DNA of 64,000 nt. It comes from a virus. Its lineage: Duplodnaviria > Caudoviricetes. Both the position numbers and the translations under genes were made by a program. Every line of letters starts with the position of its first letter. Position 1 is the stretch's first letter. The stretch spans positions 2,646 to 66,645 of the IMG/VR virus record IMGVR_UViG_3300029825_000006; one strand, given 5' to 3'. The notes under the pieces were generated by a model. That model saw only the letters and a program-made list of their open reading frames with translations. It was not told where the DNA came from and ran no database searches. Positions 2,740 to 26,361 of the stretch are shown here, in pieces.

Positions 2740-3231
2740 TTATTGATTTTTTGGTGTTTTATTTTCATTTATATATTTAATAGTTGAGAAGCTGCCTACC
2801 TTTGCTTTGTCCCCAAATATTAATACACACATTGGCAACCACAAACCTCTTTCTTCATTGTTAAAATTTACTTCTCCTATAATAAACCTAACTTCAGCGT
2901 CCTTAATAACTTCTTCCCACCATTTTGTGTTTGACCTAACTGGAACCAAACACACTTTTGTACCACTGAAACTTAGAGAGTCCTTATGAGCCTTCTTGAC
3001 CCATTTAGATAAAGCTCTTGAAAAAGGGGGGTTCATCCAGCAGTTACCTTCCCAGTCTTGTTTTAAACCGTCTTGTTCTTCTGTGAAGTATTTATCTAGT
3101 TTATGGTTCTCTTCATTAGCACAAACATCTATGTCTAAATCAAACTCGTCTTTAAGAGGCGTGAATAAAGACAGTGGTGTGCTGTATTCAACTTTTTTAC
3201 TATTAAAATTGTTTATTTTGCCTATTCCCAT
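2740..3231 (-). CDS. Phage DNA N6-adenine methyltransferase (Dam-like, PF05869 type)
   Basis: YSTP..LF, DIDVCA, CWMNPPFS, LVPVRSNTKWW motifs. Confidence 0.85.
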   Translation of the reverse strand: MGIGKINNFNSKKVEYSTPLSLFTPLKDEFDLDIDVCANEENHKLDKYFTEEQDGLKQDWEGNCWMNPPFSRALSKWVKKAHKDSLSFSGTKVCLVPVRSNTKWWEEVIKDAEVRFIIGEVNFNNEERGLWLPMCVLIFGDKAKVGSFSTIKYINENKTPKNQ

Positions 3232-3744: not shown

Positions 3745-4515
3745 TTACTCTCTCCCCTTATGATTGTCAATTCTCTCTTTTGCTATATTAAAATAATTCT
3801 CATAAACCCTATTAATCCATTCTTTAAATTCTGTTTGCGACATTGAGCTTTTAGCAGTGTTACAAAATTTACAACATGGAACTATATTATTTTTTAAATA
3901 CCCTTTTAAATTATCAATTCTGTCTATACCATTATAGTAAACAATCGTGTCGCTCGTTTTTCTGCCGTTTTCCTTAGTATTAAATCTGTCTGTAGCATAA
4001 TTGCTATTTTCTAAACTTTGAACGTGAATTGTTTCTACTACATCTATAAATGATTTATTAATTTTTTCAACAAATTTTTCAGCATAATGCAATCTATTAT
4101 GATACGGTTGATTTCGAATATCTTCACCGTCATAAAATAAACAATCAAATACTGCAAATTTTGCTTCATTTTCTTTTTGCAATTCAATTGCTCTTTCTGG
4201 AAGAGATTTTGTAATTCCAGCAATTGTTGACCAATCTTTTGAATATATTTCTCCATCTAATACTGTATATCCATAGTTTGGAACTGAAAATTGAAAAGTT
4301 GGCAAACTATCTTGTAATTCTCTAAATTCATTTGTCTTCTTTGAAATTCTTCGAGATGTGCAATATGTTTTATCATTATCAAAATGTAATAACATTCTTT
4401 CGCCATCAAATTTTGGTTGAAGATACATAAAATTTGTATCAAATAATCTATCAATATTTTTTTGATTTACATACTCAAGATGAGTTGCATGGTTTGGTTT
4501 TAATTGTTGTTTCAT
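3745..4515 (-). CDS. ATP-dependent DNA ligase N-terminal half (motifs I, III, IIIa) fused to an HNH endonuclease C-terminal fragment
   Basis: QPKFDGER, VLDGEIY, FAVFDCLFYDG; no motif IV/V or OB domain; after about aa 169 the sequence switches to YNGIDRIDNLKGY...VPCCKFCNTAK. Confidence 0.85.
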   Translation of the reverse strand: MKQQLKPNHATHLEYVNQKNIDRLFDTNFMYLQPKFDGERMLLHFDNDKTYCTSRRISKKTNEFRELQDSLPTFQFSVPNYGYTVLDGEIYSKDWSTIAGITKSLPERAIELQKENEAKFAVFDCLFYDGEDIRNQPYHNRLHYAEKFVEKINKSFIDVVETIHVQSLENSNYATDRFNTKENGRKTSDTIVYYNGIDRIDNLKGYLKNNIVPCCKFCNTAKSSMSQTEFKEWINRVYENYFNIAKERIDNHKGRE

Positions 4516-8058: not shown

Positions 8059-8885
8059 AATTCTCCTTTCTTTAAAGCCTCTATTAATTTAATTTTACTC
8101 ATTGTTATAATTGTATGATTTCGATAATCATATACTTTATATGAAGATTTTGTCAAATCTTTTTCATCTAAAATTGGTTCTGGAGAGCATCTACAATTTG
8201 GAAATTCTCCCGCGTTACCCCACATTGTATCTAAATTTGGTTTTTCATTATCTTTATTTCTCCAAAATACTACGACATCATACATTTCTCGATGTGATTT
8301 TCTTGTTCGAATATCATTTGAAGACAGCCAAATATATGCTACACTTCCTAAATCTCTTGCACGATTTTCCATAATTGCAGTTTGTAATTTTGCAGTTTCA
8401 GTTCTAGCAATTAATTTTGAATTTTTATGACCTTGCTTTCTTAGTTCTTTTTCAAAAGAACCTCGACCAATGCTACCTTCTAAAACTTGTTCTCGTAATG
8501 TTAGAATATATTTTTGTTCATATACTTTTAATACTTTTTCAGGAATAGATTTTATCATTTTAAAGTTATGCTCAGTTGCTTTTTTTAATTGCTCTAATTG
8601 AAATTCACTAAATGATTTAACATATACTTTATAACGTCTTGCTTTAGCAGCATCAAAATATTTTCTCCAAATTCCACGTTCATGAGAAAGTCCTTTTTTT
8701 GCTAATTCTTTAGAAAACTTTTTAGCAAATCTTTCATATGCATCAGTTTCGCCTAGTCTTAAAATAGTATTTTTAATTTTATCTTCATTCATTGTTTCAA
8801 ATCTTCGAATTGTTGATGTCGAAAATACTTTCTTAAAAACTTCTTTATAAATTGCTTCGATTTGTCTTTCTATTTGTTTACTCAT
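8055..8885 (-). CDS. MuF / SPP1 gp7-like minor head protein
   Basis: LIARTETAK, YIWLSSNDIRTRKSH, PNCRC motifs. Confidence 0.92.
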   Translation of the reverse strand: MSKQIERQIEAIYKEVFKKVFSTSTIRRFETMNEDKIKNTILRLGETDAYERFAKKFSKELAKKGLSHERGIWRKYFDAAKARRYKVYVKSFSEFQLEQLKKATEHNFKMIKSIPEKVLKVYEQKYILTLREQVLEGSIGRGSFEKELRKQGHKNSKLIARTETAKLQTAIMENRARDLGSVAYIWLSSNDIRTRKSHREMYDVVVFWRNKDNEKPNLDTMWGNAGEFPNCRCSPEPILDEKDLTKSSYKVYDYRNHTIITMSKIKLIEALKKGEL

Positions 8886-10642
8886 ATTTTTAATTCCTTA
8901 ATTTTAATAATATTAACATATGTTTTAATTTTATCATATATTTTGTCAATATAAAACTGATAATCGATTTTAGTAATCAAATCATCTTTTACACTATTTG
9001 ACAATATTTCATTATTATATACGAATATATTATCAGGTAAGTTTGAAACTTTAGAACGTTTCGTTTTACCCTCAGGATTGCATTTATATAACATTCTTTT
9101 TATTTTATCGTTCGATGCAAAGACACGATTTACAGATTGAACTTCCTCAATGTTAGAATATCCTTCGTAATCTTCTTGAAGTTCTACATATTTAAATGTA
9201 CCCTTTTTTGCGATATATTGAAATAGTTTTAAGTCACTTTTATTTTCAAAGACTGTTTCTTCAGGCATTTTATCTAACATAAAATAATTTACTATAGCAT
9301 CGCCAATTATAAAAGCATCTTTACTTTGTGGGAAAATGTATCTACGAGTATAATGCGCAATGTCACCCCCTAAAGCAAATATTTTATCGTCTTGCTTATA
9401 CATATAACAATTTACATCTCTTTGAACAATATCAGAAATATGTTCAATTTTTAAATTAAATCCTGTTCGATTTTGCCATTCGTTAACAATTTCAACAATT
9501 TCTTGTTCACTGATACCTTCATTAGGGACAACGATAATACCATCAGTATTTGATTGTACTAATTCTATTTTTCCTTCTAATTTTTCTAATAAGTCTACTA
9601 AAAATATTTGACCAGTCATTGTTATAAGTCTTCCATGATATGGGTCGTAAAACCCCAAATGTTCATTTAATGACGCACCAAAAACTGCCAATAAAATTGT
9701 CTTTAATACATTTCTTTTTCGAGGGTTAATTTTTTTAAGTCGTAATTGTTCATAATACATCTCTTCGTATACTTTTTTATATTCATCAGGAATTGAACGA
9801 GGTAACAATCCGTATTTAATCATTATTAAATTATAATAACCACTAACGTCAAAATATAATGCGTTTTTTGCTTTATATATTTTTCTTGCACCATGAATAC
9901 CGCCAACACCAATAATATGTTCCACACCGCAAATAGTTGTTGTTAATTTTGCATTTTCAGATAGAAATTTTTCTTCAAGATAAAATTCTAGCACTTCTTT
10001 ATTTTTAATAATTAAATTATCGTAATGTTTAGGTTTTACAACCCAACTACTAATTCCATCAATTCTTTCAGCATGTAATACTTTTTCAGCAGTCATTGCT
10101 TCAGTATAACTCAATGCTTTCATATCAAGTTTAAATTCAGCAATTGTTTCTAATTGTAAGATAAATGCGTCTTTTACTTTAATAAAATTATCTAACGTTT
10201 GTTCTAAGTCGTCAAAGTTATATAATTCTACGATTTCTTTTTCTTCATTAGTTAATCGTCTTTGTAAATTAAATGATACTTTTGACTCAGAGATTTGTTT
10301 ACCATCAAGTGCTTCTGTAACTTTTAACGAAAAGAAACCAGCGGCTGACATTATATCATAATAGTGTAAATGTATATTTAAATATTGTCTTTTATCTCGT
10401 ATAATTATGTCATCATTAATTTTTTTCGGATCGTTATCTTTTAAACATGCTTGCAAAATAAAATTATCATAATGTTCATTATTCCAGCCTATCCATATGC
10501 TTTCTTTATTTTGTAAATAGAACTTTTTAATTTCGTCTATTGACCAAGTTTGAAATAATGTAATATCATCGTTTTCGATAATTAACGCGCCTAATAAAGT
10601 ATCATATAAAAATACTTCAAAGTCAAATATTATTATTTTCAT
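8882..10642 (-). CDS. Family-B-type DNA polymerase with 3'-5' exonuclease
   Basis: Exo motifs DFEV, WNNEHYD, YNFDD; polymerase motifs YFDVSGYY, KTILLAVFG, SNTDG. Confidence 0.88.
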   Translation of the reverse strand: MKIIIFDFEVFLYDTLLGALIIENDDITLFQTWSIDEIKKFYLQNKESIWIGWNNEHYDNFILQACLKDNDPKKINDDIIIRDKRQYLNIHLHYYDIMSAAGFFSLKVTEALDGKQISESKVSFNLQRRLTNEEKEIVELYNFDDLEQTLDNFIKVKDAFILQLETIAEFKLDMKALSYTEAMTAEKVLHAERIDGISSWVVKPKHYDNLIIKNKEVLEFYLEEKFLSENAKLTTTICGVEHIIGVGGIHGARKIYKAKNALYFDVSGYYNLIMIKYGLLPRSIPDEYKKVYEEMYYEQLRLKKINPRKRNVLKTILLAVFGASLNEHLGFYDPYHGRLITMTGQIFLVDLLEKLEGKIELVQSNTDGIIVVPNEGISEQEIVEIVNEWQNRTGFNLKIEHISDIVQRDVNCYMYKQDDKIFALGGDIAHYTRRYIFPQSKDAFIIGDAIVNYFMLDKMPEETVFENKSDLKLFQYIAKKGTFKYVELQEDYEGYSNIEEVQSVNRVFASNDKIKRMLYKCNPEGKTKRSKVSNLPDNIFVYNNEILSNSVKDDLITKIDYQFYIDKIYDKIKTYVNIIKIKELKI

Positions 10643-11070
10643 TTTCCAGTACTTCCTAAACCACGATTACCCCTTTCAGTGTTTGGTAATTCTTGAACAA
10701 TATCAAGATATGGATTTAATATTGAATAAACTACTAGACTGCAAACTCTTTGACCTGCTTTAATTTCAATTTTATTCTTTGAGCAATTTGTTATAATTAA
10801 ATGAATTTCTCCAGTATAATCTGGGTCGATTATTGAAGTTTGAATTAATAACCCTTTTTCAGCAATAGAACTCCTAGGAACTAACATACCTGCATGACCT
10901 TCAGGTATTGCTACTCCAATTTCTAGACCGATTGTCTTAGTTTCTAGTATTTCTAATTCTAAATCACAAGGCATAAAAATATCTAAACCACTATCAGGTA
11001 AATGCGATTTTTTTGGTAAAATCGTACTTTCTTTAAACAATCTAATTTTCATATTTTCCCCCCTAAACAT
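10639..11070 (-). CDS. dut: Trimeric dUTPase (likely start at 11052)
   Basis: DSGLD, PRSS, IIDPDYTGEI, RGNRGLGSTG motifs. Confidence 0.95.
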   Translation of the reverse strand: MFRGENMKIRLFKESTILPKKSHLPDSGLDIFMPCDLELEILETKTIGLEIGVAIPEGHAGMLVPRSSIAEKGLLIQTSIIDPDYTGEIHLIITNCSKNKIEIKAGQRVCSLVVYSILNPYLDIVQELPNTERGNRGLGSTGK

Positions 11071-11962
11071 TTAATAATACTTTAATATTTGCATCAACAA
11101 TTTTATCAATTGTATTGTAATATTTTCTTAAAAAATTCCATTGTTTTATTTGATTTTCCGTATAATCAATATTATCAATGTCTTTGATAAAACCAGTAAT
11201 ATCATCTGAATATTTAAAATATTTTCGCGTATTACTTCCATGAATTATAATCGTTCCACAAGGAATTGCTTCATGAACTATTGTTTCCATATGGTCAAAT
11301 GGTTGAATTAAATTTATGTCTAAATATAAAAATTGACATTTTTTAATTTCGTTATATAATTCATCATTAGTTTTACCTATATGAATATCGTATGAATTAT
11401 CTAAATTATATGTTTCATCCAATTCTTTAGAAGTTAAAATTACTTTTTTCCAATGTTTAAATTTTTCTTGAGATGTATAATTTATAAATTCGTTTAAACC
11501 TTTACTTTTTCTACCAACAAAACAAATACTATTTTTATCTTTATCTTTGAAATTAACCCAATGTTTGTTATGAATTTCATAATAATTTGAGCCTGCTTGT
11601 TCATAAGCAATTACTTTAAATTTTTTCAAAAATAATTCTTTATATAAATCACTATCTTTCGAAATAACAATATGTAAATCGATTAATTCTAATAAACCAT
11701 CGATATTAAAAATTGCATTGTTTTGATATATTCGTCTATCACAGTAATGATGTATAAATACTATTTTTTTACCATTATTTTTATAACTAGACCATTCGTT
11801 TTTAATTTCTTTATTAAATGGTATTTGTGCATAAACTAAAACATCAGCATCTTCTTTTTCTGTAAAAAGATTTCTTTTTTTGACTTCATTCAATAAGAAA
11901 CCCTGCATCTTTTGTTGCCCACTAATTTTGTCGCAAGACATATCAACGTATAACTTTTTCAT
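11063..11962 (-). CDS. GT-B-fold glycosyltransferase (GT4-like)
   Basis: IVFIHH, ICFVGRKSKG, ELYNEIKKCQFLY, ETIVHEAIPCGTIII resemble the GT4 E-X7-E donor-binding region. Confidence 0.7.
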   Translation of the reverse strand: MKKLYVDMSCDKISGQQKMQGFLLNEVKKRNLFTEKEDADVLVYAQIPFNKEIKNEWSSYKNNGKKIVFIHHYCDRRIYQNNAIFNIDGLLELIDLHIVISKDSDLYKELFLKKFKVIAYEQAGSNYYEIHNKHWVNFKDKDKNSICFVGRKSKGLNEFINYTSQEKFKHWKKVILTSKELDETYNLDNSYDIHIGKTNDELYNEIKKCQFLYLDINLIQPFDHMETIVHEAIPCGTIIIHGSNTRKYFKYSDDITGFIKDIDNIDYTENQIKQWNFLRKYYNTIDKIVDANIKVLLNV

Positions 11963-11977
11963 ATTTACCTCGTATAA

Positions 11978-12056
11978 AATTTAACTTTAGGTTAATAATA
12001 TTAATATTAATAATTATATATAAATAAATATTAAAAAATACATCTGAAGTTAAATT
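11978..12056. repeat. Degenerate F2 hairpin element
   Basis: AATTTAACTTTAG ... CTGAAGTTAAATT, 79 bp span, core TATATAAATA. Confidence 0.6.
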
Positions 12057-12061
12057 AATAA

Positions 12062-12520
12062 TTAATTATTTATAATATTCATATATCTTATAATATCTTT
12101 AGCAATATTATAAGGTGTTATTTTAGAAGTATTATAATTTAAAATTTTTAAATTATGTTCAGTTATTAAAATTTTCTCAGCATTTTCAAAAGCCATTATA
12201 TTTTCGTCATAATTAATCTTTGGCTCATTTGTATATTTACATCTAATATTCCAATCTTCTTCATCAACTGCTAAAAGAACATTTACAATGTTTTTTTGTT
12301 GAGATACTTCATAAGAATAATCTCTTTTATATAAATTTGAATATGCTATCATTGATATTATTCCTCTAGAATATACTAAATATCTTTTTTCAGATAATTC
12401 TGAAATATAGAACGCGATTAAATCTTTTCCAGTTTTATCAATACCATCTAAAACAATAGTATAATATTTTAATTTTTTATCCATTATAATACCTCTATTT
12501 AATATATTTAAAAATTTCAA
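12062..12520 (-). CDS. dNMP/thymidylate-kinase-like P-loop protein (likely start at 12484)
   Basis: IVLDGIDKTGKD P-loop; YSRGIIS at the position of the DR motif. Confidence 0.7.
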   Translation of the reverse strand: MKFLNILNRGIIMDKKLKYYTIVLDGIDKTGKDLIAFYISELSEKRYLVYSRGIISMIAYSNLYKRDYSYEVSQQKNIVNVLLAVDEEDWNIRCKYTNEPKINYDENIMAFENAEKILITEHNLKILNYNTSKITPYNIAKDIIRYMNIINN

Positions 12521-13043
12521 TTAATGAATTAACTCTAATACCATTAAATTCATAATCAATATTTTCAGAATTTATTACATTTATATATAAAGCGTCACCA
12601 TTTATTCTTTTAATATTATTTAAATTATCGACGTTGTCTTCAACAACTAAATCTACATGACCAAATTTTTCAAAAATTGTAAAGTCTTTTTTAGCAGAAC
12701 AATATATATAATCATAAATTAATCTATTTTTCTTAAGCCAATTAATAGTTCTTTCTAATTGATTATTTTTAAATAAATCTCTTGAAGTAATTATATATAT
12801 TAAATATCCGGTTTGCTTTAACAAATTTAATAAAATTACTGCATTTTCTTTAACGTTTGCATCATTTTTAAATTCTGAATTAATATAATTTTCTTTCATC
12901 TTTCGATAATCAATAAATGATAGTGCACTTTTAATTTCATGTAAAGTTTTAAAATTTGTTTTTAAAGAATAATTGCAATAATCAATAAGAGTTTGTGGAT
13001 AATTGTTTAAAACACCATCAATATCAATTATTGCTTTTTTCAT
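12495..13043 (-). CDS. HAD-family 5'(3')-deoxyribonucleotidase-like protein
   Basis: IDIDGVL motif I, IITSR motif II, K, VEDN motif IV. Confidence 0.85.
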   Translation of the reverse strand: MKKAIIDIDGVLNNYPQTLIDYCNYSLKTNFKTLHEIKSALSFIDYRKMKENYINSEFKNDANVKENAVILLNLLKQTGYLIYIITSRDLFKNNQLERTINWLKKNRLIYDYIYCSAKKDFTIFEKFGHVDLVVEDNVDNLNNIKRINGDALYINVINSENIDYEFNGIRVNSLIEIFKYIK

Positions 13044-13935
13044 AATTATCGATGTTACTCAAAATAGAGTTTTCAATTTCTTTATATTTATTATAACCAT
13101 ACATTTTAGTCATATCACCATATACAGTTTCCATATTTTCTGTATGTTCAGTCTTATTTTGCGGTAATGGTTTGTACCATTTAGAACTTAATTCATGTTT
13201 CGACTCACTGCAATAAAATTGATTTCTAGCATGAATATTAATATTTAAAGGGTATACTTTTTTTAATACTTCATAAATTCTTAACGCGAATACATTATCT
13301 GATTTTGGTTGAACTTGCATATCAATTCGTTGATTTAACATTTTCATAAAATCAAACAAACTTCCTGTAACATAATAAAATGTTTCCATCGTTCTAGGTA
13401 AAACCAATCTTGCATCTTGAATATGAACTTTATCTGTTAAATTATTACATATGTCATCATATAATTTATATGAGTCTTGCATAATTTTTACGTAACGTTC
13501 TTTATATTCTTTAGGAGTATCTTCTAAAAAACTTGGCACAATTAAGTTTCGATTTGTAATGTATTTATCTCCTGTACAATCTGCAGCAAATGACAAACCA
13601 TTATGTCGAATTAAATGCGTAACATCATGTGTTGTAATTCCCTCTAACAATATTGTTATTTGAACTGATTTCATTGCAGTTGGAATTAATTTTCCATCAA
13701 AAAATAATTGCATGATTTTATCTCTATCATTAATTGTTAAAGTATCTCTAAATTCCTGAATATTTTCGTTCCATGTACCCATAACTAATTCTGGTATATA
13801 ACTTTTCAAAATTTCATAAGGCGTATAATTTAGTAATGTTACTTTTATATTTTCTAAATCATTAACTAATTTATTGTTTGTACTAACAATATTTGTCCTT
13901 TTTTTAAATCTTTTATTTTTTAAATTAAATTCCAT
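13024..13935 (-). CDS. thyX: ThyX-like flavin-dependent enzyme with an atypical active-site motif
   Basis: LIRHNGLSF and DARLVLP...LNQR align with ThyX; RHRX7S appears as RHNX7C. Confidence 0.75.
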   Translation of the reverse strand: MEFNLKNKRFKKRTNIVSTNNKLVNDLENIKVTLLNYTPYEILKSYIPELVMGTWNENIQEFRDTLTINDRDKIMQLFFDGKLIPTAMKSVQITILLEGITTHDVTHLIRHNGLSFAADCTGDKYITNRNLIVPSFLEDTPKEYKERYVKIMQDSYKLYDDICNNLTDKVHIQDARLVLPRTMETFYYVTGSLFDFMKMLNQRIDMQVQPKSDNVFALRIYEVLKKVYPLNINIHARNQFYCSESKHELSSKWYKPLPQNKTEHTENMETVYGDMTKMYGYNKYKEIENSILSNIDNYEKSNN

Positions 13936-14717
13936 TCGTATCCCTCCCTTTTCAGTACATATTTAATTATATCTTCTTGTTTTATTTGAGTTTTTGTAGC
14001 GTATCGACCAATATAAATATATTCGACGTTATCTTTTACGTCAAACTCTGTATATATTTTTGGTTTGTCGTAATAATTTAAAATTTTTATATGTTCTATA
14101 TGAGGTTCACTGATACATTCTGTATAATTTTTAGAATATCTTTTAACGTTTGATGTTAAATTACAATCGTATACATAGTCAAAATCTAAAACATCATTGT
14201 TTGTTTTTACTACGTATTCTACAGAACCTTCATTATTTATAAATTCTTTAGTATTATCATAAACTTTTGAATTTATAACGTTTGGCATAGTATCAACAAT
14301 TTTATCTTCATATCTTAATTTTAAATCTTCAAATACTACGTTTAGTAATATTCCATAATATGAATTTAAATTGTCACTCATTGAAGATTTTGTTTTTATT
14401 CTATTTTGTTTAGATAAATAATTATTATACATTTCTTGAGTAATAATTTCATAAATTTTACCATTAAAGAAATAACCAACTTTTATTTTCTTTGTATATT
14501 TTGATATATTTTCATTATTATAATTTATTTTAAATATATCAAAATAAAATTTTAATTCTTGTTCGTCGTTATATTTTAAAAATAAAATCGGTGTTATAGA
14601 ATTACCCTTATTTATACCTTTATTTTTATCGTATATGATAAAATCTTTATTTAAATAATCTAAACATGTAGCAATAACATACGTACCTAGACTATTTCCA
14701 ACGACTATATTTTTCAT
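13920..14717 (-). CDS. Divergent Rossmann-fold protein resembling UDP-galactopyranose mutase / FAD oxidoreductases
   Basis: N-terminal IVVGNSLG...IIYDK; C-terminal YIGRYAT comparable to the UGM GRLA/GY motif. Confidence 0.45.
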   Translation of the reverse strand: MKNIVVGNSLGTYVIATCLDYLNKDFIIYDKNKGINKGNSITPILFLKYNDEQELKFYFDIFKINYNNENISKYTKKIKVGYFFNGKIYEIITQEMYNNYLSKQNRIKTKSSMSDNLNSYYGILLNVVFEDLKLRYEDKIVDTMPNVINSKVYDNTKEFINNEGSVEYVVKTNNDVLDFDYVYDCNLTSNVKRYSKNYTECISEPHIEHIKILNYYDKPKIYTEFDVKDNVEYIYIGRYATKTQIKQEDIIKYVLKREGYEWNLI

Positions 14718-15634
14718 TCATACTTCTCCTTTATATCATTAAATATATAATTAAAATATCGAAAATCATCTCTCGTCCATTTGTATAGATGTTTTTTATC
14801 TTTTGTTTTATAAAAATCAGATAATTCAAATATTTCTTTTACTCTATCACCATCTTGAGTAATATTCTCATATAAATATCTTACTAATCGATAATCTCTT
14901 TCGCTTTCATCTTTTCCAGAACCTGGTGCATGTTTAAACCATAAATCTTGAAAATCAAAACATGTTAGATAGTGATATTTCACTTTTTTCATTATTTCTT
15001 CGATTGAACGATTGTCAACAGTTTCTTTTATTTTTTTATTATTTCTAGTAATTCTTTTTTTCTTCATGTATTTTTCTAAGAATTCTAAAATTATATCAAA
15101 ATAATCTATATTCGAAGAAATTGAATTATTATATAAATATCTACCAGTAACACTAACATATCTATTTGAATGATTTGGTTGATAATATTCTACACCTATT
15201 TCTGAATTTTTAATTTTATAGTTAGATGAATATTCATCAATAGACTTTTGCTTAAATAGAATTCTTATTCCAGTTCCACTAAAACTAAATTCAATATATG
15301 CAAAGTCTTTAAACATATTAATTATTTCTAACGAAAAATCATTAATTGTATTTTTATCAAAAGGCTCTTTAACACAATTATCTATATCTATTGCACAGAT
15401 ATTACTTGCTTGAACTGATATCCCAACTCCCGAATAATCTTTTAATTTTTTGCATTCTAACAATGTTTCTAATGAAACAAAATCGTCATAATTTTTTACA
15501 GAAGCAATACTATTATCAATTTTAAACGGAAATTTTTTATCATTAATTAAACAATATTTAAGTTCTTCAAATACTAAAGAAGTGTCAAGAATTCTTTCGA
15601 TGGTTTCTATTGCAGACATAGTCACCTCTTTCAT
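14714..15634 (-). CDS. Primase-polymerase (NrS-1/P4-like N-terminal primase, no helicase domain)
   Basis: GVGI..., AIDIDNC, EFSFSGTGIRI, VEYY...RYVSVTG; helical C-terminal domain GSGKDESERD. Confidence 0.8.
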   Translation of the reverse strand: MKEVTMSAIETIERILDTSLVFEELKYCLINDKKFPFKIDNSIASVKNYDDFVSLETLLECKKLKDYSGVGISVQASNICAIDIDNCVKEPFDKNTINDFSLEIINMFKDFAYIEFSFSGTGIRILFKQKSIDEYSSNYKIKNSEIGVEYYQPNHSNRYVSVTGRYLYNNSISSNIDYFDIILEFLEKYMKKKRITRNNKKIKETVDNRSIEEIMKKVKYHYLTCFDFQDLWFKHAPGSGKDESERDYRLVRYLYENITQDGDRVKEIFELSDFYKTKDKKHLYKWTRDDFRYFNYIFNDIKEKYE

Positions 15635-15644
15635 TTATAAAAAA

Positions 15645-15675
15645 TTCTAGACTATTAATTATTAATAGTCTAGAA
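15645..15675 (-). terminator. Intrinsic terminator-like hairpin
   Basis: Perfect 15-bp inverted repeat TTCTAGACTATTAAT followed by a T-run on the minus strand. Confidence 0.6.
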
Positions 15676-15682
15676 CTATTAA

Positions 15683-19499: not shown

Positions 19500-19937
19500 T
19501 TAATTAATTTTGATTAAATTAATATTTGCATGATTTGCAATTTTCATCGTTAACTCATATTCTTTATGATAGATTTCTTTAAAATAAATATTTTTAATAC
19601 CATGTTGAATTAAAATATTTAAACAATTATGACAGGGTGAATGAGTTATATAAATATCAGTGTCATTACAACTTATTCCCATTCTACAAGCATTTGCAAT
19701 AGCATTAAGTTCTGCATGAATTACATAATTATATTTTTCTTCAGAATGCCAATCAAATTCTAATGTCGATTTTCTTGCTGAGCCATTATAGCCAATTCCT
19801 ACTACGCAACCATCTTTAACTAATACTGCGCCAACTTTTGTTTTAGGGTCTTCAGAACGCTCTGAAACTACTTTTGCAATTTTAAAATATAATTCTTCCC
19901 AACTAATTCTATTTTCGTTTTCGTTTAATTCTAACAT
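19500..19937 (-). CDS. dCMP deaminase
   Basis: RSEDP.TKVGAV, HAELNA, PCHNC. Confidence 0.93.
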   Translation of the reverse strand: MLELNENENRISWEELYFKIAKVVSERSEDPKTKVGAVLVKDGCVVGIGYNGSARKSTLEFDWHSEEKYNYVIHAELNAIANACRMGISCNDTDIYITHSPCHNCLNILIQHGIKNIYFKEIYHKEYELTMKIANHANINLIKIN

Positions 19938-20109: not shown

Positions 20110-21165
20110 TTATTTATACATATATAATGATTTTCTTGCTCTTGTAATAGCAGTGTATAGCCATTTTTTAAAATCATCATATTGCGTTCCTTCAACTACT
20201 ACAAATACTTTTTCAAATTCACTTCCTTGTGATTTATGACATGTTATTGCGTATGCATAATCAACTATATGAATATTCATACTTGTTTGATAATTTGCAG
20301 ATAATTTATTTGTAGTATCAGCAAGAATATGTGTATTAATATATATCTTTTGCGTATTACCATTATCATCTAGGACAATTACTTCTGCAAAATTATAACT
20401 ATCATTTATATTAATAATCTCAACAATTTGAACAATTGAACCATTCATTAAACCTGTCGATTTATTATTTCGAAGAACCATTAATTTTTCACCAACGTCT
20501 ATTAAATGCGTATAATGATATATCTTTTCACGAATAATCTTATTTAAATTATTTCTAGTTTTATTATATCTACAAATAACAATGCTGTCTTCATCGATTA
20601 AATTCAAATCTCTAACAATATTATTTCTTTTAAACATTACGTTTTCATATGATGTTTTTATAATTTTATCCATTCGAACATCTGTTGCAAAATCCAATAA
20701 ACCACCATCATTTCTAAAAACATGTGTTAAAAATATATCGGGATTTTCTAATATTGTGCTTGTCCCAAATACAGGTGGTAATTGCGCAGGGTCGCCAAGA
20801 CCTATTATAGGAATTCCAGTGTTAATTAAATCTTTTAACAAATCATCAGAAACCATTGATATTTCATCAACGATTAATAAATCTTCTGTAAATTCATCAT
20901 GATGTTTTTTTACAAAAATTAATTTATTATTTTCATCGAGTTTTGCAAAATATAAATATGAGTGAATTGTTTTAGCGTTTGAATGTAAAACTTTTGCTGC
21001 TTTACCAGTAGGAGTTAAAAAAGCAACATTATACTCAAGAAGATTTAAAATCTCAGGAACTTTTCTTGCAAGTGTTGTTTTACCGCATCCTGCGTATCCG
21101 CTGATAATAAAAATTCTATCGTTCTCATAATTATACCAATTAATTATTTTTTCTATATTGTCCAT
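20110..21165 (-). CDS. SF1B Dda/RecD-like helicase
   Basis: GYAGCGKTT, VDEISMV, GDPAQLPPV, YAITCHKSQGSEF, YTAITRA. Confidence 0.92.
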   Translation of the reverse strand: MDNIEKIINWYNYENDRIFIISGYAGCGKTTLARKVPEILNLLEYNVAFLTPTGKAAKVLHSNAKTIHSYLYFAKLDENNKLIFVKKHHDEFTEDLLIVDEISMVSDDLLKDLINTGIPIIGLGDPAQLPPVFGTSTILENPDIFLTHVFRNDGGLLDFATDVRMDKIIKTSYENVMFKRNNIVRDLNLIDEDSIVICRYNKTRNNLNKIIREKIYHYTHLIDVGEKLMVLRNNKSTGLMNGSIVQIVEIININDSYNFAEVIVLDDNGNTQKIYINTHILADTTNKLSANYQTSMNIHIVDYAYAITCHKSQGSEFEKVFVVVEGTQYDDFKKWLYTAITRARKSLYMYK

Positions 21166-21482
21166 TATAAGTCTCCTTCATGTTTCATAATATCATCAAA
21201 GAACTTCTTAAATTCTTCAATACTATCAACGCATATATAATATATCCCTAAATCTTTAAATCTTCTAGCCCATGTTTCTTGCATAGTAGACATTGAACCA
21301 TTTGGTTGTTTAACTTCAATTTCAATGTGTTTACCATTGAATATAACATATAAATCAGGAAGTCCTTTTTTATAAGCAAAACCTCCAGCCTGACGTCTAA
21401 ATTGTAAAATTTTATAACCATTATTTTCCAATATTGTTAAATACTTAACTATTTCTGCCTTAATTCCTCCTTCAGGTGTCAT
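21165..21482 (-). CDS. VRR-NUC-family nuclease / resolvase
   Basis: E...., GLPDL, IEIEVKQP.G.MS..Q..W. Confidence 0.88.
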   Translation of the reverse strand: MTPEGGIKAEIVKYLTILENNGYKILQFRRQAGGFAYKKGLPDLYVIFNGKHIEIEVKQPNGSMSTMQETWARRFKDLGIYYICVDSIEEFKKFFDDIMKHEGDL

Positions 21483-25809: not shown

Positions 25810-26361
25810 CTATATCACCCCTTCTTTTAAATCTATTCTAAATTCTTCTAATTGTCGTTTAATTTTCCTACTAACATGTGGTTGCGATATGTTCAATTTC
25901 TTTGAAATTTCTTTTTGTTTATAGCCAAAAAGATATAATTTTAGAACTTTTCCACAACGCGAAAGAACAAAATCATATCTTTCTTTCTTAATTAAATTTT
26001 CAGAAATATTTTCATTTTCATCAGGAATTGTATCGAGTAAATCAATATTATCAAATATTTCTTTATCATATGAAGTTACTATCATTTTATTTTCTTTAGA
26101 TTTTTTACGTCTCAAGTGGATTTTAAATAAGTTTAACCAACAAAACATAGAGAATGTTGTAAAGTTTGCTTTTTCTTCATTAAATAAATGTCGTTTATTC
26201 CATGAATGTATTACTAATTCTTGAACAAAATCTTCATCTTCATAACCTATAACATGATGCTTATGAACAAAACTCCAAGCCAATAAATATAATTGACTAA
26301 TTATCTCATTTTCTAAAGTAGAATTCATTAAGTCTACTTTCTTTACTTCGTTTAGTTTCAT
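25810..26361 (-). CDS. Phage-encoded sigma-70-family (ECF-like) sigma factor
   Basis: Region 2-like EDFVQEL...FNEEKANFTTF; region 4 HTH GYKQKEISKKLNISQPHVSR. Confidence 0.8.
   Translation of the reverse strand: MKLNEVKKVDLMNSTLENEIISQLYLLAWSFVHKHHVIGYEDEDFVQELVIHSWNKRHLFNEEKANFTTFSMFCWLNLFKIHLRRKKSKENKMIVTSYDKEIFDNIDLLDTIPDENENISENLIKKERYDFVLSRCGKVLKLYLFGYKQKEISKKLNISQPHVSRKIKRQLEEFRIDLKEGVI

Follow-up and report, generated by a model that had tools for sequence, protein, structure and literature searches.

In bacteriophage T4, the pathway to glucosylated 5-hydroxymethylcytosine (hmC) comprises the dCMP hydroxymethylase gp42, the deoxynucleoside monophosphate (dNMP) kinase gp1, the dCTPase/dUTPase gp56, the dCMP deaminase cd, and the alpha- and beta-glucosyltransferases. 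The 5-hydroxymethyluracil (hmU) pathway of SPO1/SP8 consists of a dUMP hydroxymethylase, a dCMP deaminase, an hmdUMP kinase, a dUTPase/dTTPase and a dTMP nucleotidase. A dNMP-degrading enzyme is a hallmark of the known replacement pathways (SP5C dTMP nucleotidase, PBS2). The characterised phage pathways that we found for C5-modified pyrimidine nucleotides all start from an enzyme of the ThyA fold. Here we describe a gene cluster that encodes a ThyX-family protein together with a glycosyltransferase (GT) and several enzymes of nucleotide metabolism. The cluster lies at positions 8882-14717 of a 64,000-nucleotide stretch of DNA, in the following termed the window, which represents bases 2646-66645 of the 66,645-bp IMG/VR virus record IMGVR_UViG_3300029825_000006, rated 100% complete. 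We read the locus as the nucleotide-tailoring section of a replication operon in an uncultured tailed phage.

Flavin chemistry and sugar-like DNA modifications have been described for several other phages. RB69 and DLP3 encode flavin-dependent 5-hydroxy-dCMP synthases of the ThyA superfamily, together with arabinosyltransferases (PMC13326640). In the Pbunaviruses F8 and 14-1, thymidine is hypermodified with sugar-like groups by genes that are unassigned, and about a quarter of the T residues of 14-1 is affected (PMC12191111). The Thy1-domain protein gp130 of Bacillus phage SP-15 has been hypothesised, without enzymology, to be a hydroxymethyluridylate synthase (PMC5977210). Apart from this hypothesis, our literature search revealed no characterised ThyX-based hydroxymethylation or glycosylation route, in agreement with the initial annotation of the window, which was made from the sequence alone and knew of no characterised ThyX-based glycosylation.

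We lean towards the view that the locus encodes a pyrimidine replacement and glycosylation pathway in the style of T4 and SPO1, with an enzyme of the ThyX family at the step that usually falls to one of the ThyA family. The initial annotation had described seven adjacent co-oriented genes, and all seven open reading frames are present at 8882-14717 on the minus strand. Library and structure searches bear out the gene identities that it had assigned, including that of the GT-B glycosyltransferase, which no sequence library recognises; the protein called 'UGM-like' (UGM, UDP-galactopyranose mutase) fits its name at the level of the fold only. The dCMP deaminase that had been noted about 5 kb away was also found. 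In the order of transcription, the genes and elements are as follows.

19500..19937, minus strand: dCMP deaminase, 145 aa (PF00383 5.7e-25, phrog_174 4.6e-42), 4.8 kb upstream of the cluster
15643..15677, minus strand: putative terminator-like 16-bp hairpin upstream of the gene string (consensus scan only)
14714..15634, minus strand: primase-like protein, 306 aa (phrog_1829 DNA primase 3.9e-23), first gene of the coupled string
13920..14717, minus strand: compact FAD/NAD(P)-Rossmann flavoprotein-like protein ('UGM-like'), 265 aa (fold of the AlphaFold2 model)
13024..13935, minus strand: non-canonical ThyX-family enzyme, 303 aa, C[TS]GD clade (Pfam Thy1 3.8e-15)
12495..13043, minus strand: NT5C-type HAD 5'(3')-deoxyribonucleotidase-like protein, 182 aa (PF06941 6.6e-5 and DIDGV motif I)
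12062..12520, minus strand: minimal Tmk-like P-loop dNMP kinase, 152 aa from a TTG start (PF02223 E 0.005)
11963..12061, minus strand: AT-rich spacer with a hairpin and a GAGGT ribosome-binding site ahead of the GT gene (direct sequence reading)
11063..11962, minus strand: GT-B glycosyltransferase, 299 aa (AlphaFold2 model; structure nearest to T4 DNA alpha-glucosyltransferase)
10639..11070, minus strand: trimeric dUTPase, 143 aa (PF00692 2.4e-29, phrog_135 7.5e-33)
8882..10642, minus strand: DNA polymerase, 586 aa (phrog_1252 3.1e-97)

The ThyX-like protein is a member of the Thy1 family, as the initial annotation had proposed, but its sequence is not that of an ordinary ThyX. It scores 56.6 bits with the Pfam Thy1 profile (gathering score 24.8), where only profile positions 52-190 of 191 are covered, and it is 75-90 residues longer than three ordinary phage ThyX proteins that served as controls. 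With the thyX equivalog model TIGR02170 it reaches 31.5 bits, below the cut-off of 87.9 bits, which is the score NCBI uses to name a protein thyX. The controls obtained 179.4 bits (phiCP34O), 163.5 bits (S-CRM01) and 128.8 bits (APT65). Since all three pass the model, the failure of the ThyX-like protein is not a mere consequence of phage coding. Profile and multiple alignments show that the substrate loop RHR-X7-SxRY of ThyX is changed to RHN-X7-CTGDKY in the window protein. As aligned, the three SxRY residues Ser, Arg and Tyr, which presumably contact the substrate, are replaced by Cys, Gly and Asp, respectively; a two-residue insertion or register shift could instead pair KY with RY. The RH of the RHR motif is kept at the aligned positions, and R176 and R203 align with two downstream conserved arginines of the M. 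tuberculosis ThyX (in ARxVLP and a later R).

The changed loop is highly conserved. CTGDKY is present in all 120 close relatives listed for the window protein, and C[TS]GD[KR][WYF] in all 120 relatives listed for its homologue in Geobacillus phage GR1. The wider C[TS]GD clade comprises more than 1,100 clusters at E <= 1e-10, mostly from phage contigs. Neither a ThyA nor a TET/JBP gene was found in the complete window genome. The ThyX-like enzyme is therefore the sole candidate for generating the hydroxyl acceptor of a GT, and the same applies to GR1, where no ThyA and no TET/JBP gene was found either.

The 299-aa GT has no match in Pfam and NCBIfam, and a single weak match in PHROG, to a PHROG of unknown function. 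Only 12 relatives were found among 5.8 billion proteins, where the family amounts to 13 clusters, and tblastn against isolate phages as well as a scan of IMG/VR with the GT alignment yielded none. The family profile has no match in the PDB, and against Pfam at E <= 1 nothing was detected beyond Glycos_transf_1 at 0.01 in one member. Two motifs are invariant in the family alignment, F-x-G-R-x-x-K-G and H-x-E-x4-E-A-x-x-C-G; the nucleotide-sugar donor motifs of retaining GT-B enzymes are of the GRxxxxKG and E...EA..G types, and the glutamate spacing in the second family motif is shorter than their EX7E spacing. At the sequence level, the GT is a new family that has no link to the T4 DNA alpha-glucosyltransferase (AGT). 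The structure tells more: the AlphaFold2 model (pLDDT 92.5, pTM 0.87) confirms the GT-B fold, and Foldseek places the T4 AGT structures on top (TMq 0.72-0.73). VIA-align with five AGT entries gave Z 23.3-24.1 and a root-mean-square deviation of 3.2-3.4 A over 285-294 of the 299 residues, at 16-17% identity. The next families are PimA (Z 19.4) and other GT4-like enzymes (16-18.5). Judged by the model, the nearest known structure is that of a DNA-modifying enzyme.

For a comparative survey, related loci were taken from viral and metagenome collections. The trio of 265-aa protein, ThyX-like protein and HAD protein was present in every surveyed locus with enough flank, and the adjacency of these genes is therefore not due to chance. 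Two layouts were observed: the window-like one, in which the trio follows the primase, and that of a 45-kb phage type, in which two small genes intervene and a D5 primase follows. Across the relatives, identities to the window are 72-82% for the ThyX-like protein, 58-64% for the HAD protein and 38-50% for the flavoprotein, and 27-30% for the DNA polymerase of the 45-kb type. In L004, L005, L019, L021, L022 and L024, for instance, the ThyX-like protein is 73-75% identical to that of the window, while their DNA polymerases are only 28-29% identical. This contrast suggests either horizontal movement of the cassette among phage lineages or an unusually strong constraint on the ThyX-like protein. 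No homologue of the kinase or of the AGT-like GT was detected in the complete 45-kb genomes, and locus L023 has the kinase and lacks the GT. The flavoprotein-ThyX-nucleotidase trio is the conserved core, with kinase and GT as add-ons in some lineages. According to the initial annotation, absence of the GT from homologous clusters would speak against the pathway. It is indeed missing from many ThyX clusters, but its distribution is that of an optional addition to the conserved core.

Wherever a GT gene of this family occurs, a Tmk-like kinase and a thymidylate-synthase-family enzyme of non-canonical type are encoded in the same cassette. In all five GT contexts with upstream DNA (window, L007, L008, L010 and L035) the thymidylate-synthase-family gene scores below the equivalog cut-off, and a Tmk-like kinase homologue is present in seven of seven GT contexts. 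Syntenic phages hold differing cassettes in the slot between primase and polymerase, each with a GT.

L007: deoxyribosyltransferase-like gene, YfbR-type HD nucleotidase, a different ThyX-like gene (19% identity, below the cut-off), kinase, GT, and a second GT of the TET-associated (TAGT) type
L008, L010 and L035: ThyA homologue of 235-240 aa, kinase, other genes, GT

The ThyA homologues of L008, L010 and L035 carry the sequence G[LF]PYD, with the Asn-to-Asp change that marks cytosine-specific members. The L010 protein, the one searched against the PDB, matches the CMP hydroxymethylase MilA (1.5e-22) and the T4 dCMP hydroxymethylase (1.7e-13), and true thymidylate synthases rank lower (about 1e-9 to 1e-10). 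Some of these cassettes contain additional genes. The second putative DNA GT of L007 (3751-4653, plus strand; PF20691 1.4e-5) also matches phrog_842, beta-glucosyl-HMC-alpha-glucosyltransferase, at 3.5e-4, which recalls the paired GTs of the T-even phages. Upstream of the GT, L008 (6418-9893) and L036 (312-2756) encode a cytosine-type ThyA homologue, a HAD-like protein of 357 aa (phrog_1238, annotated as phosphoheptose isomerase, 1e-20), a cytidylyltransferase-like protein and a protein of 286-316 aa. The nature of these extra genes suggests that they could make a donor sugar and that different phages attach different glycans.

In the wider clade, a dNMP-degrading enzyme is encoded next to the ThyX-like gene in four of four further contexts. 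In L039 this is an NT5C protein, in L040 and L041 a YfbR-type HD protein, and in L042 a deoxyribosyltransferase-like gene, an HD gene and a gene for a 458-aa GR1-like protein stand beside the ThyX-like gene. Among isolate phages, a C[TS]GD ThyX was found in Geobacillus phage GR1 (OK896991) alone; the protein is 39% identical to that of the window.

GR1 neighbourhood: nucleoside 2-deoxyribosyltransferase-like gene, HD protein, GT of 459 aa, Tmk-like P-loop protein, nitroreductase-family flavoprotein, ThyX-like gene; a dUTPase further on

The GR1 GT matches phrog_2888, 'alpha-glucosyltransferase', at 6e-53; the profile of this PHROG does not detect the window GT. A motif LE...QEAI..G is common to the GR1 GT and the window GT family (hhalign probability 70%). 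A phmmer search with the GR1 GT found no link to T4 AGT, and the phrog_2888 label is therefore annotation only. No paper on GR1 was found in the literature. In its gene content, GR1 is an independent recurrence of a C[TS]GD ThyX in combination with a GT, a kinase and nucleotide-degrading enzymes.

The 265-aa protein has no match in Pfam, PHROG or NCBIfam, and hence none to GLF or NAD_binding_8. With phmmer, 35 clusters of similar size were found among 1.84 billion representatives, none of them tied to a named family. Its AlphaFold2 model (pLDDT 91) shows a compact two-domain FAD/NAD(P) Rossmann fold. In the VIA comparison, UGM reached Z 12.0-12.8, followed by protoporphyrinogen oxidase (PPO, 11.3-11.4), PF1083 (11.3), D-amino-acid oxidase (DAAO, 11.1-11.2), renalase (10.9), and class A monooxygenases and halogenases (about 10). 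The bacterial UGM chains that were matched have 363-392 aa. GNSLGT forms the N-terminal loop of the window protein; most relatives have G[ND]G[ILV][ST][AG] there. The closest viral structural matches are uncharacterised phage proteins, and the Atlas neighbours are viral hypothetical proteins of 250-290 aa with partial NAD_binding_8, DAO or halogenase signatures. As far as the model goes, the assignment to the FAD fold is sound, and the specific assignment to UGM is not established. The conservation pattern places the flavoprotein with the ThyX-like enzyme and not with the GT. The nitroreductase of GR1 suggests, by analogy, that it may be a flavin-reducing or oxidative helper. A complex prediction of two ThyX-like chains with the 265-aa protein gave a score of 0.00 without control runs and counts neither way.

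The HAD protein scores 23.3 bits with PF06941 (NT5C), just under the cut-off of 24.8, and contains the DIDGV motif. Its orthologues are 58-64% identical and always encoded directly downstream of the ThyX-like gene; they are on record as NT5C, those with 62% identity with an unmarked PF06941 match. The kinase matches Thymidylate_kin (PF02223) only weakly (16.9 bits, cut-off 27, E 0.005). Its homologues match phrog_761, thymidylate kinase, at 1.2e-14 (GR1), 2.3e-11 (L008), 1.6e-5 (L037) and 9.4e-5 (L007). The P-loop GIDKTGKD has the form GxDxxGK-D, not GK[ST], and a RG..S..Y motif is common to the homologues. An ATG at 12484, which would give a protein of 140 aa, is the more likely start of the kinase gene. 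In L010 (8883-10004) and L035 (4518-5711) the Tmk-like kinase makes up the N-terminal portion of a fusion protein of 373-397 aa, whose C-terminal ~230 residues match no family. The dUTPase scores 102.2 bits with PF00692 (cut-off 22) and 100.1 bits with TIGR00576 (cut-off 102.55). Despite its strong PHROG match, the DNA polymerase has no Pfam family and no PDB sequence match at E <= 0.01.

In the pathway that we propose, the dCMP deaminase and the dUTPase would enlarge the dUMP pool, into which the deaminase probably feeds; alternatively, dCMP would be used directly. The C[TS]GD ThyX-like enzyme would add a one-carbon group to C5 of the pyrimidine dNMP, most likely yielding 5-hydroxymethyl-dUMP or 5-hydroxymethyl-dCMP, probably with the help of the adjacent compact flavoprotein, which might for example keep the flavin reduced. 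The minimal Tmk-like kinase would phosphorylate the modified dNMP, while the NT5C-type nucleotidase would clear the competing canonical dNMP. The phage polymerase would then build in the modified nucleotide, and the T4-AGT-like GT-B enzyme would glycosylate the new hydroxyl group in the DNA. Two observations point to different bases. The cytosine-type ThyA homologues in the sister cassettes and the new acidic loop residues suggest that cytosine may be modified, and the combination of dCMP deaminase, dUTPase, NT5C and Tmk-like kinase mirrors the hmU route. A more specific proposal, which we make tentatively and do not regard as the expected outcome, is that the C[TS]GD clade as a whole is a flavin-dependent synthase of C5-functionalised pyrimidine dNMPs, probably a hydroxymethylase that possibly uses the invariant loop cysteine, and not a thymidylate synthase. 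The ThyX fold would thereby acquire a new class of reaction. In the window phage its product would enter the DNA and be glycosylated by the AGT-like GT family to glycosyl-hmU or glycosyl-hmC.

Several points weigh against such a pathway. The dCMP deaminase, the dUTPase, the ThyX-family enzyme and the Tmk-like kinase are exactly the canonical textbook route to dTTP, of which a genome with 75% AT requires large amounts. Besides the ThyX-like gene, no thymidylate-synthase-family gene was found in the window genome, in the genomes G001 and G002 or in GR1, and the ThyX-like product could therefore be the real thymidylate synthase of these phages; a housekeeping role in phages would also fit the very large size of the C[TS]GD clade. 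That the GT is not obligatorily linked to this ThyX clade is shown by the complete 45-kb relatives, in which no homologue of this GT or of this kinase was detected, and by L023, which has the kinase but no GT. In addition, the GT has no sequence-level link to any DNA GT family, and a fold shared with AGT does not establish a shared substrate. These points could be explained by an ordinary thymidylate supply: a divergent but genuine ThyX, with deaminase, dUTPase and kinase, would boost dTTP for the AT-rich genome, the nucleotidase would balance the pools, and the GT would act on something other than the ThyX product, for example a host surface glycan or a protein. The retained positions of the two conserved arginines and of the RH of the RHR motif, and the presence of the trio without this GT in complete genomes, would agree with it. 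Nevertheless, we consider this explanation unlikely. The ThyX-like protein falls far short of the equivalog cut-off, while three control phage ThyX pass, and all three residues of the SxRY loop, Ser, Arg and Tyr, are replaced. A dNMP-degrading enzyme systematically placed beside the synthase would be counter-productive for dTTP supply. Finally, the GT is structurally nearest to a DNA GT, and its orthologues in sister phages pair with cytosine-type, hydroxymethylase-like ThyA homologues.

Two further explanations assign a different task to the flavoprotein. The ThyX-like enzyme might methylate C5, giving dTMP or 5-methyl-dCMP, and the 265-aa protein might then, as a monooxygenase, place a hydroxyl on the methyl group or on the ring and so generate the GT acceptor. 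Class A flavin monooxygenases and halogenases are among its fold neighbours, it is strictly co-conserved with the ThyX-like gene, the ThyX-like gene of GR1 is adjoined by a different flavoprotein, and flavin-dependent C5 hydroxylation of dCMP by a ThyA homologue was recently demonstrated (PMC13326640). However, the protein matches none of the monooxygenase families specifically, UGM, PPO and DAAO score equally or higher, the nitroreductase of GR1 is more in keeping with a flavin-reductase helper than with an oxygenase, and the rebuilt ThyX substrate loop would be left unexplained, which makes this two-step oxidation improbable. The initial annotation had proposed that the UGM-like protein supplies the sugar donor of the GT, which would make it a shortened UGM-type enzyme producing a furanose nucleotide-sugar. 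UGMs were nominally first in both VIA searches (Z 12.8 over 248 residues and Z 12.5 over 244 residues), and a C-terminal GR.AT....D..I motif appears to resemble the UGM C-terminal motif. The thymidines of Pbunaviruses, moreover, bear sugar-like groups from unassigned genes (PMC12191111). This donor role did not hold up well, and we regard it as very improbable. The 265-aa protein is co-conserved with the ThyX-like and HAD proteins in complete 45-kb genomes that lack this GT, and it is absent from the other GT cassettes (L007, L008, L010 and L035). Its resemblance to UGM amounts to a near-tie at fold level, with UGM only ~1 Z unit ahead of PPO and DAAO; it is ~100 residues shorter than UGMs, matches no Pfam family, GLF included, and its Atlas neighbours belong to generic NAD_binding_8, DAO and halogenase clusters. 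A T4/SPO1-style replacement and glycosylation pathway with a ThyX-family synthase is the reading that we prefer to these three.

Successive cluster genes overlap by 4-26 nt, the sole exception being the ~100-nt spacer at 11963-12061. Because this is the only non-overlapping junction, the cluster consists of two translationally coupled strings, the first comprising the genes for primase, 265-aa protein, ThyX-like protein, HAD protein and kinase, and the second those for GT, dUTPase, polymerase and a Mu-F-like head protein, which comes after the polymerase gene. The primase-like gene overlaps the following gene by 4 nt and is syntenic in L007, L008, L010, L011-L016 and L026. The window has a GC content of about 25% and a strand switch near 34 kb; its minus-strand half carries the replication and nucleotide genes. 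Besides the cluster, this half encodes the following.

Minus strand: the primase-like protein, a DUF669 SSB-like protein, a Sak4-like AAA_24 protein and a PD-(D/E)XK exonuclease
Minus strand: the dCMP deaminase, a Dda-like helicase, an SNF2 helicase, a sigma factor and a D5-type primase-helicase

A search for tRNA genes in the window found none, and by blastn the cluster has no DNA-level match among 50,697 phage records. A prophage or cellular origin of the locus was ruled out, since the virus contig of the record is complete and contains structural genes. Some other genes of the minus strand are also of interest. A Dam-family DNA N6-adenine methyltransferase of 163 aa is encoded at 2740-3231 (PF05869 4.9e-27); adenine methylation by the phage is probably a second DNA modification, independent of the cluster. 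An ATP-dependent DNA ligase at 3745-4515 consists of the adenylation domain only (PF01068, residues 26-173 of 256). A small VRR-NUC nuclease is encoded at 21165-21482 (PF08774 1.9e-5), and in the 45-kb relatives its homologue stands between the flavoprotein and ThyX-like genes. The sigma-70-family factor at 25810-26361, in the early/replication arm, has Sigma70_r2 and r4 matches; the 45-kb relatives also encode a protein with a weak Sigma70_r2 match.

If the proposed pathway is correct, the strategy of the ThyA-based pathways would have been invented independently on the ThyX fold, and a flavoenzyme family that is already well studied would gain a new chemistry. Given the size and wide spread of the clade, modified bases may then occur in GR1, which can be cultured, and in many uncultured phages, behind genes that are now annotated as thymidylate synthase; this would bear on the prediction of restriction-enzyme and CRISPR resistance and on sequencing bias. 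With the 299-aa GT, the few known families of DNA glycosyltransferases would be joined by a compact one. Since GR1 and its host G. stearothermophilus ATCC 10149 are both cultured, the question of the pathway is directly testable.

Among the described systems, SP-15 gp130 is the only published suggestion found of a ThyX-family protein that feeds a glycosylated thymine hypermodification. There the sugar genes lie in a separate teichoic-acid-like cluster, unlike in the window, and SP-15 was not among the tblastn matches of the window ThyX-like protein at E <= 1e-3. In Pbunavirus 14-1 the gene for the ThyX variant gp60 is followed by a gene annotated as polynucleotide kinase/phosphorylase, an exonuclease and a DNA polymerase, an order that recalls the window. 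However, gp60 shares just 18% identity with the window protein and carries ETSRA instead of C[TS]GD, and a test of eight 14-1 proteins revealed no sequence homologue of the GT or of the 265-aa protein; 14-1 was therefore rejected as a member of the window ThyX system and is an analogy only. RB69 and DLP3 show that thymidylate-synthase-type enzymes can be repurposed via flavin chemistry to create a hydroxyl acceptor for DNA GTs. Their enzymes have the ThyA fold and not the ThyX fold, and their sugar-donor genes differ.

The closest parallels are the pathways of T4 and SPO1/SP8. Like T4, the window encodes a putative synthase that modifies a dNMP at C5, along with a dNMP kinase, a dUTPase-type enzyme, a dCMP deaminase and an AGT-like GT-B enzyme (Z 24), and sister phages hold a cytosine-type ThyA homologue (G[LF]PYD) where the window has the ThyX-like gene. 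In contrast to T4, the synthase belongs to the unrelated ThyX fold, the place of the kinase is taken by a Tmk-like protein of 140-150 aa, and the NT5C nucleotidase and the flavoprotein are extra. The window GT is 100 residues shorter than AGT, only 16% identical to it in the structural alignment, and missed by the PHROG alpha-glucosyltransferase profile and by the PDB sequence search. In the SPO1/SP8 pathway, the hydroxymethylase is a ThyA homologue and there is no GT, whereas the window combines a ThyX-like synthase with a GT. Yet each enzyme class of the SPO1/SP8 pathway has its counterpart in the window, including the otherwise puzzling deoxynucleotidase.

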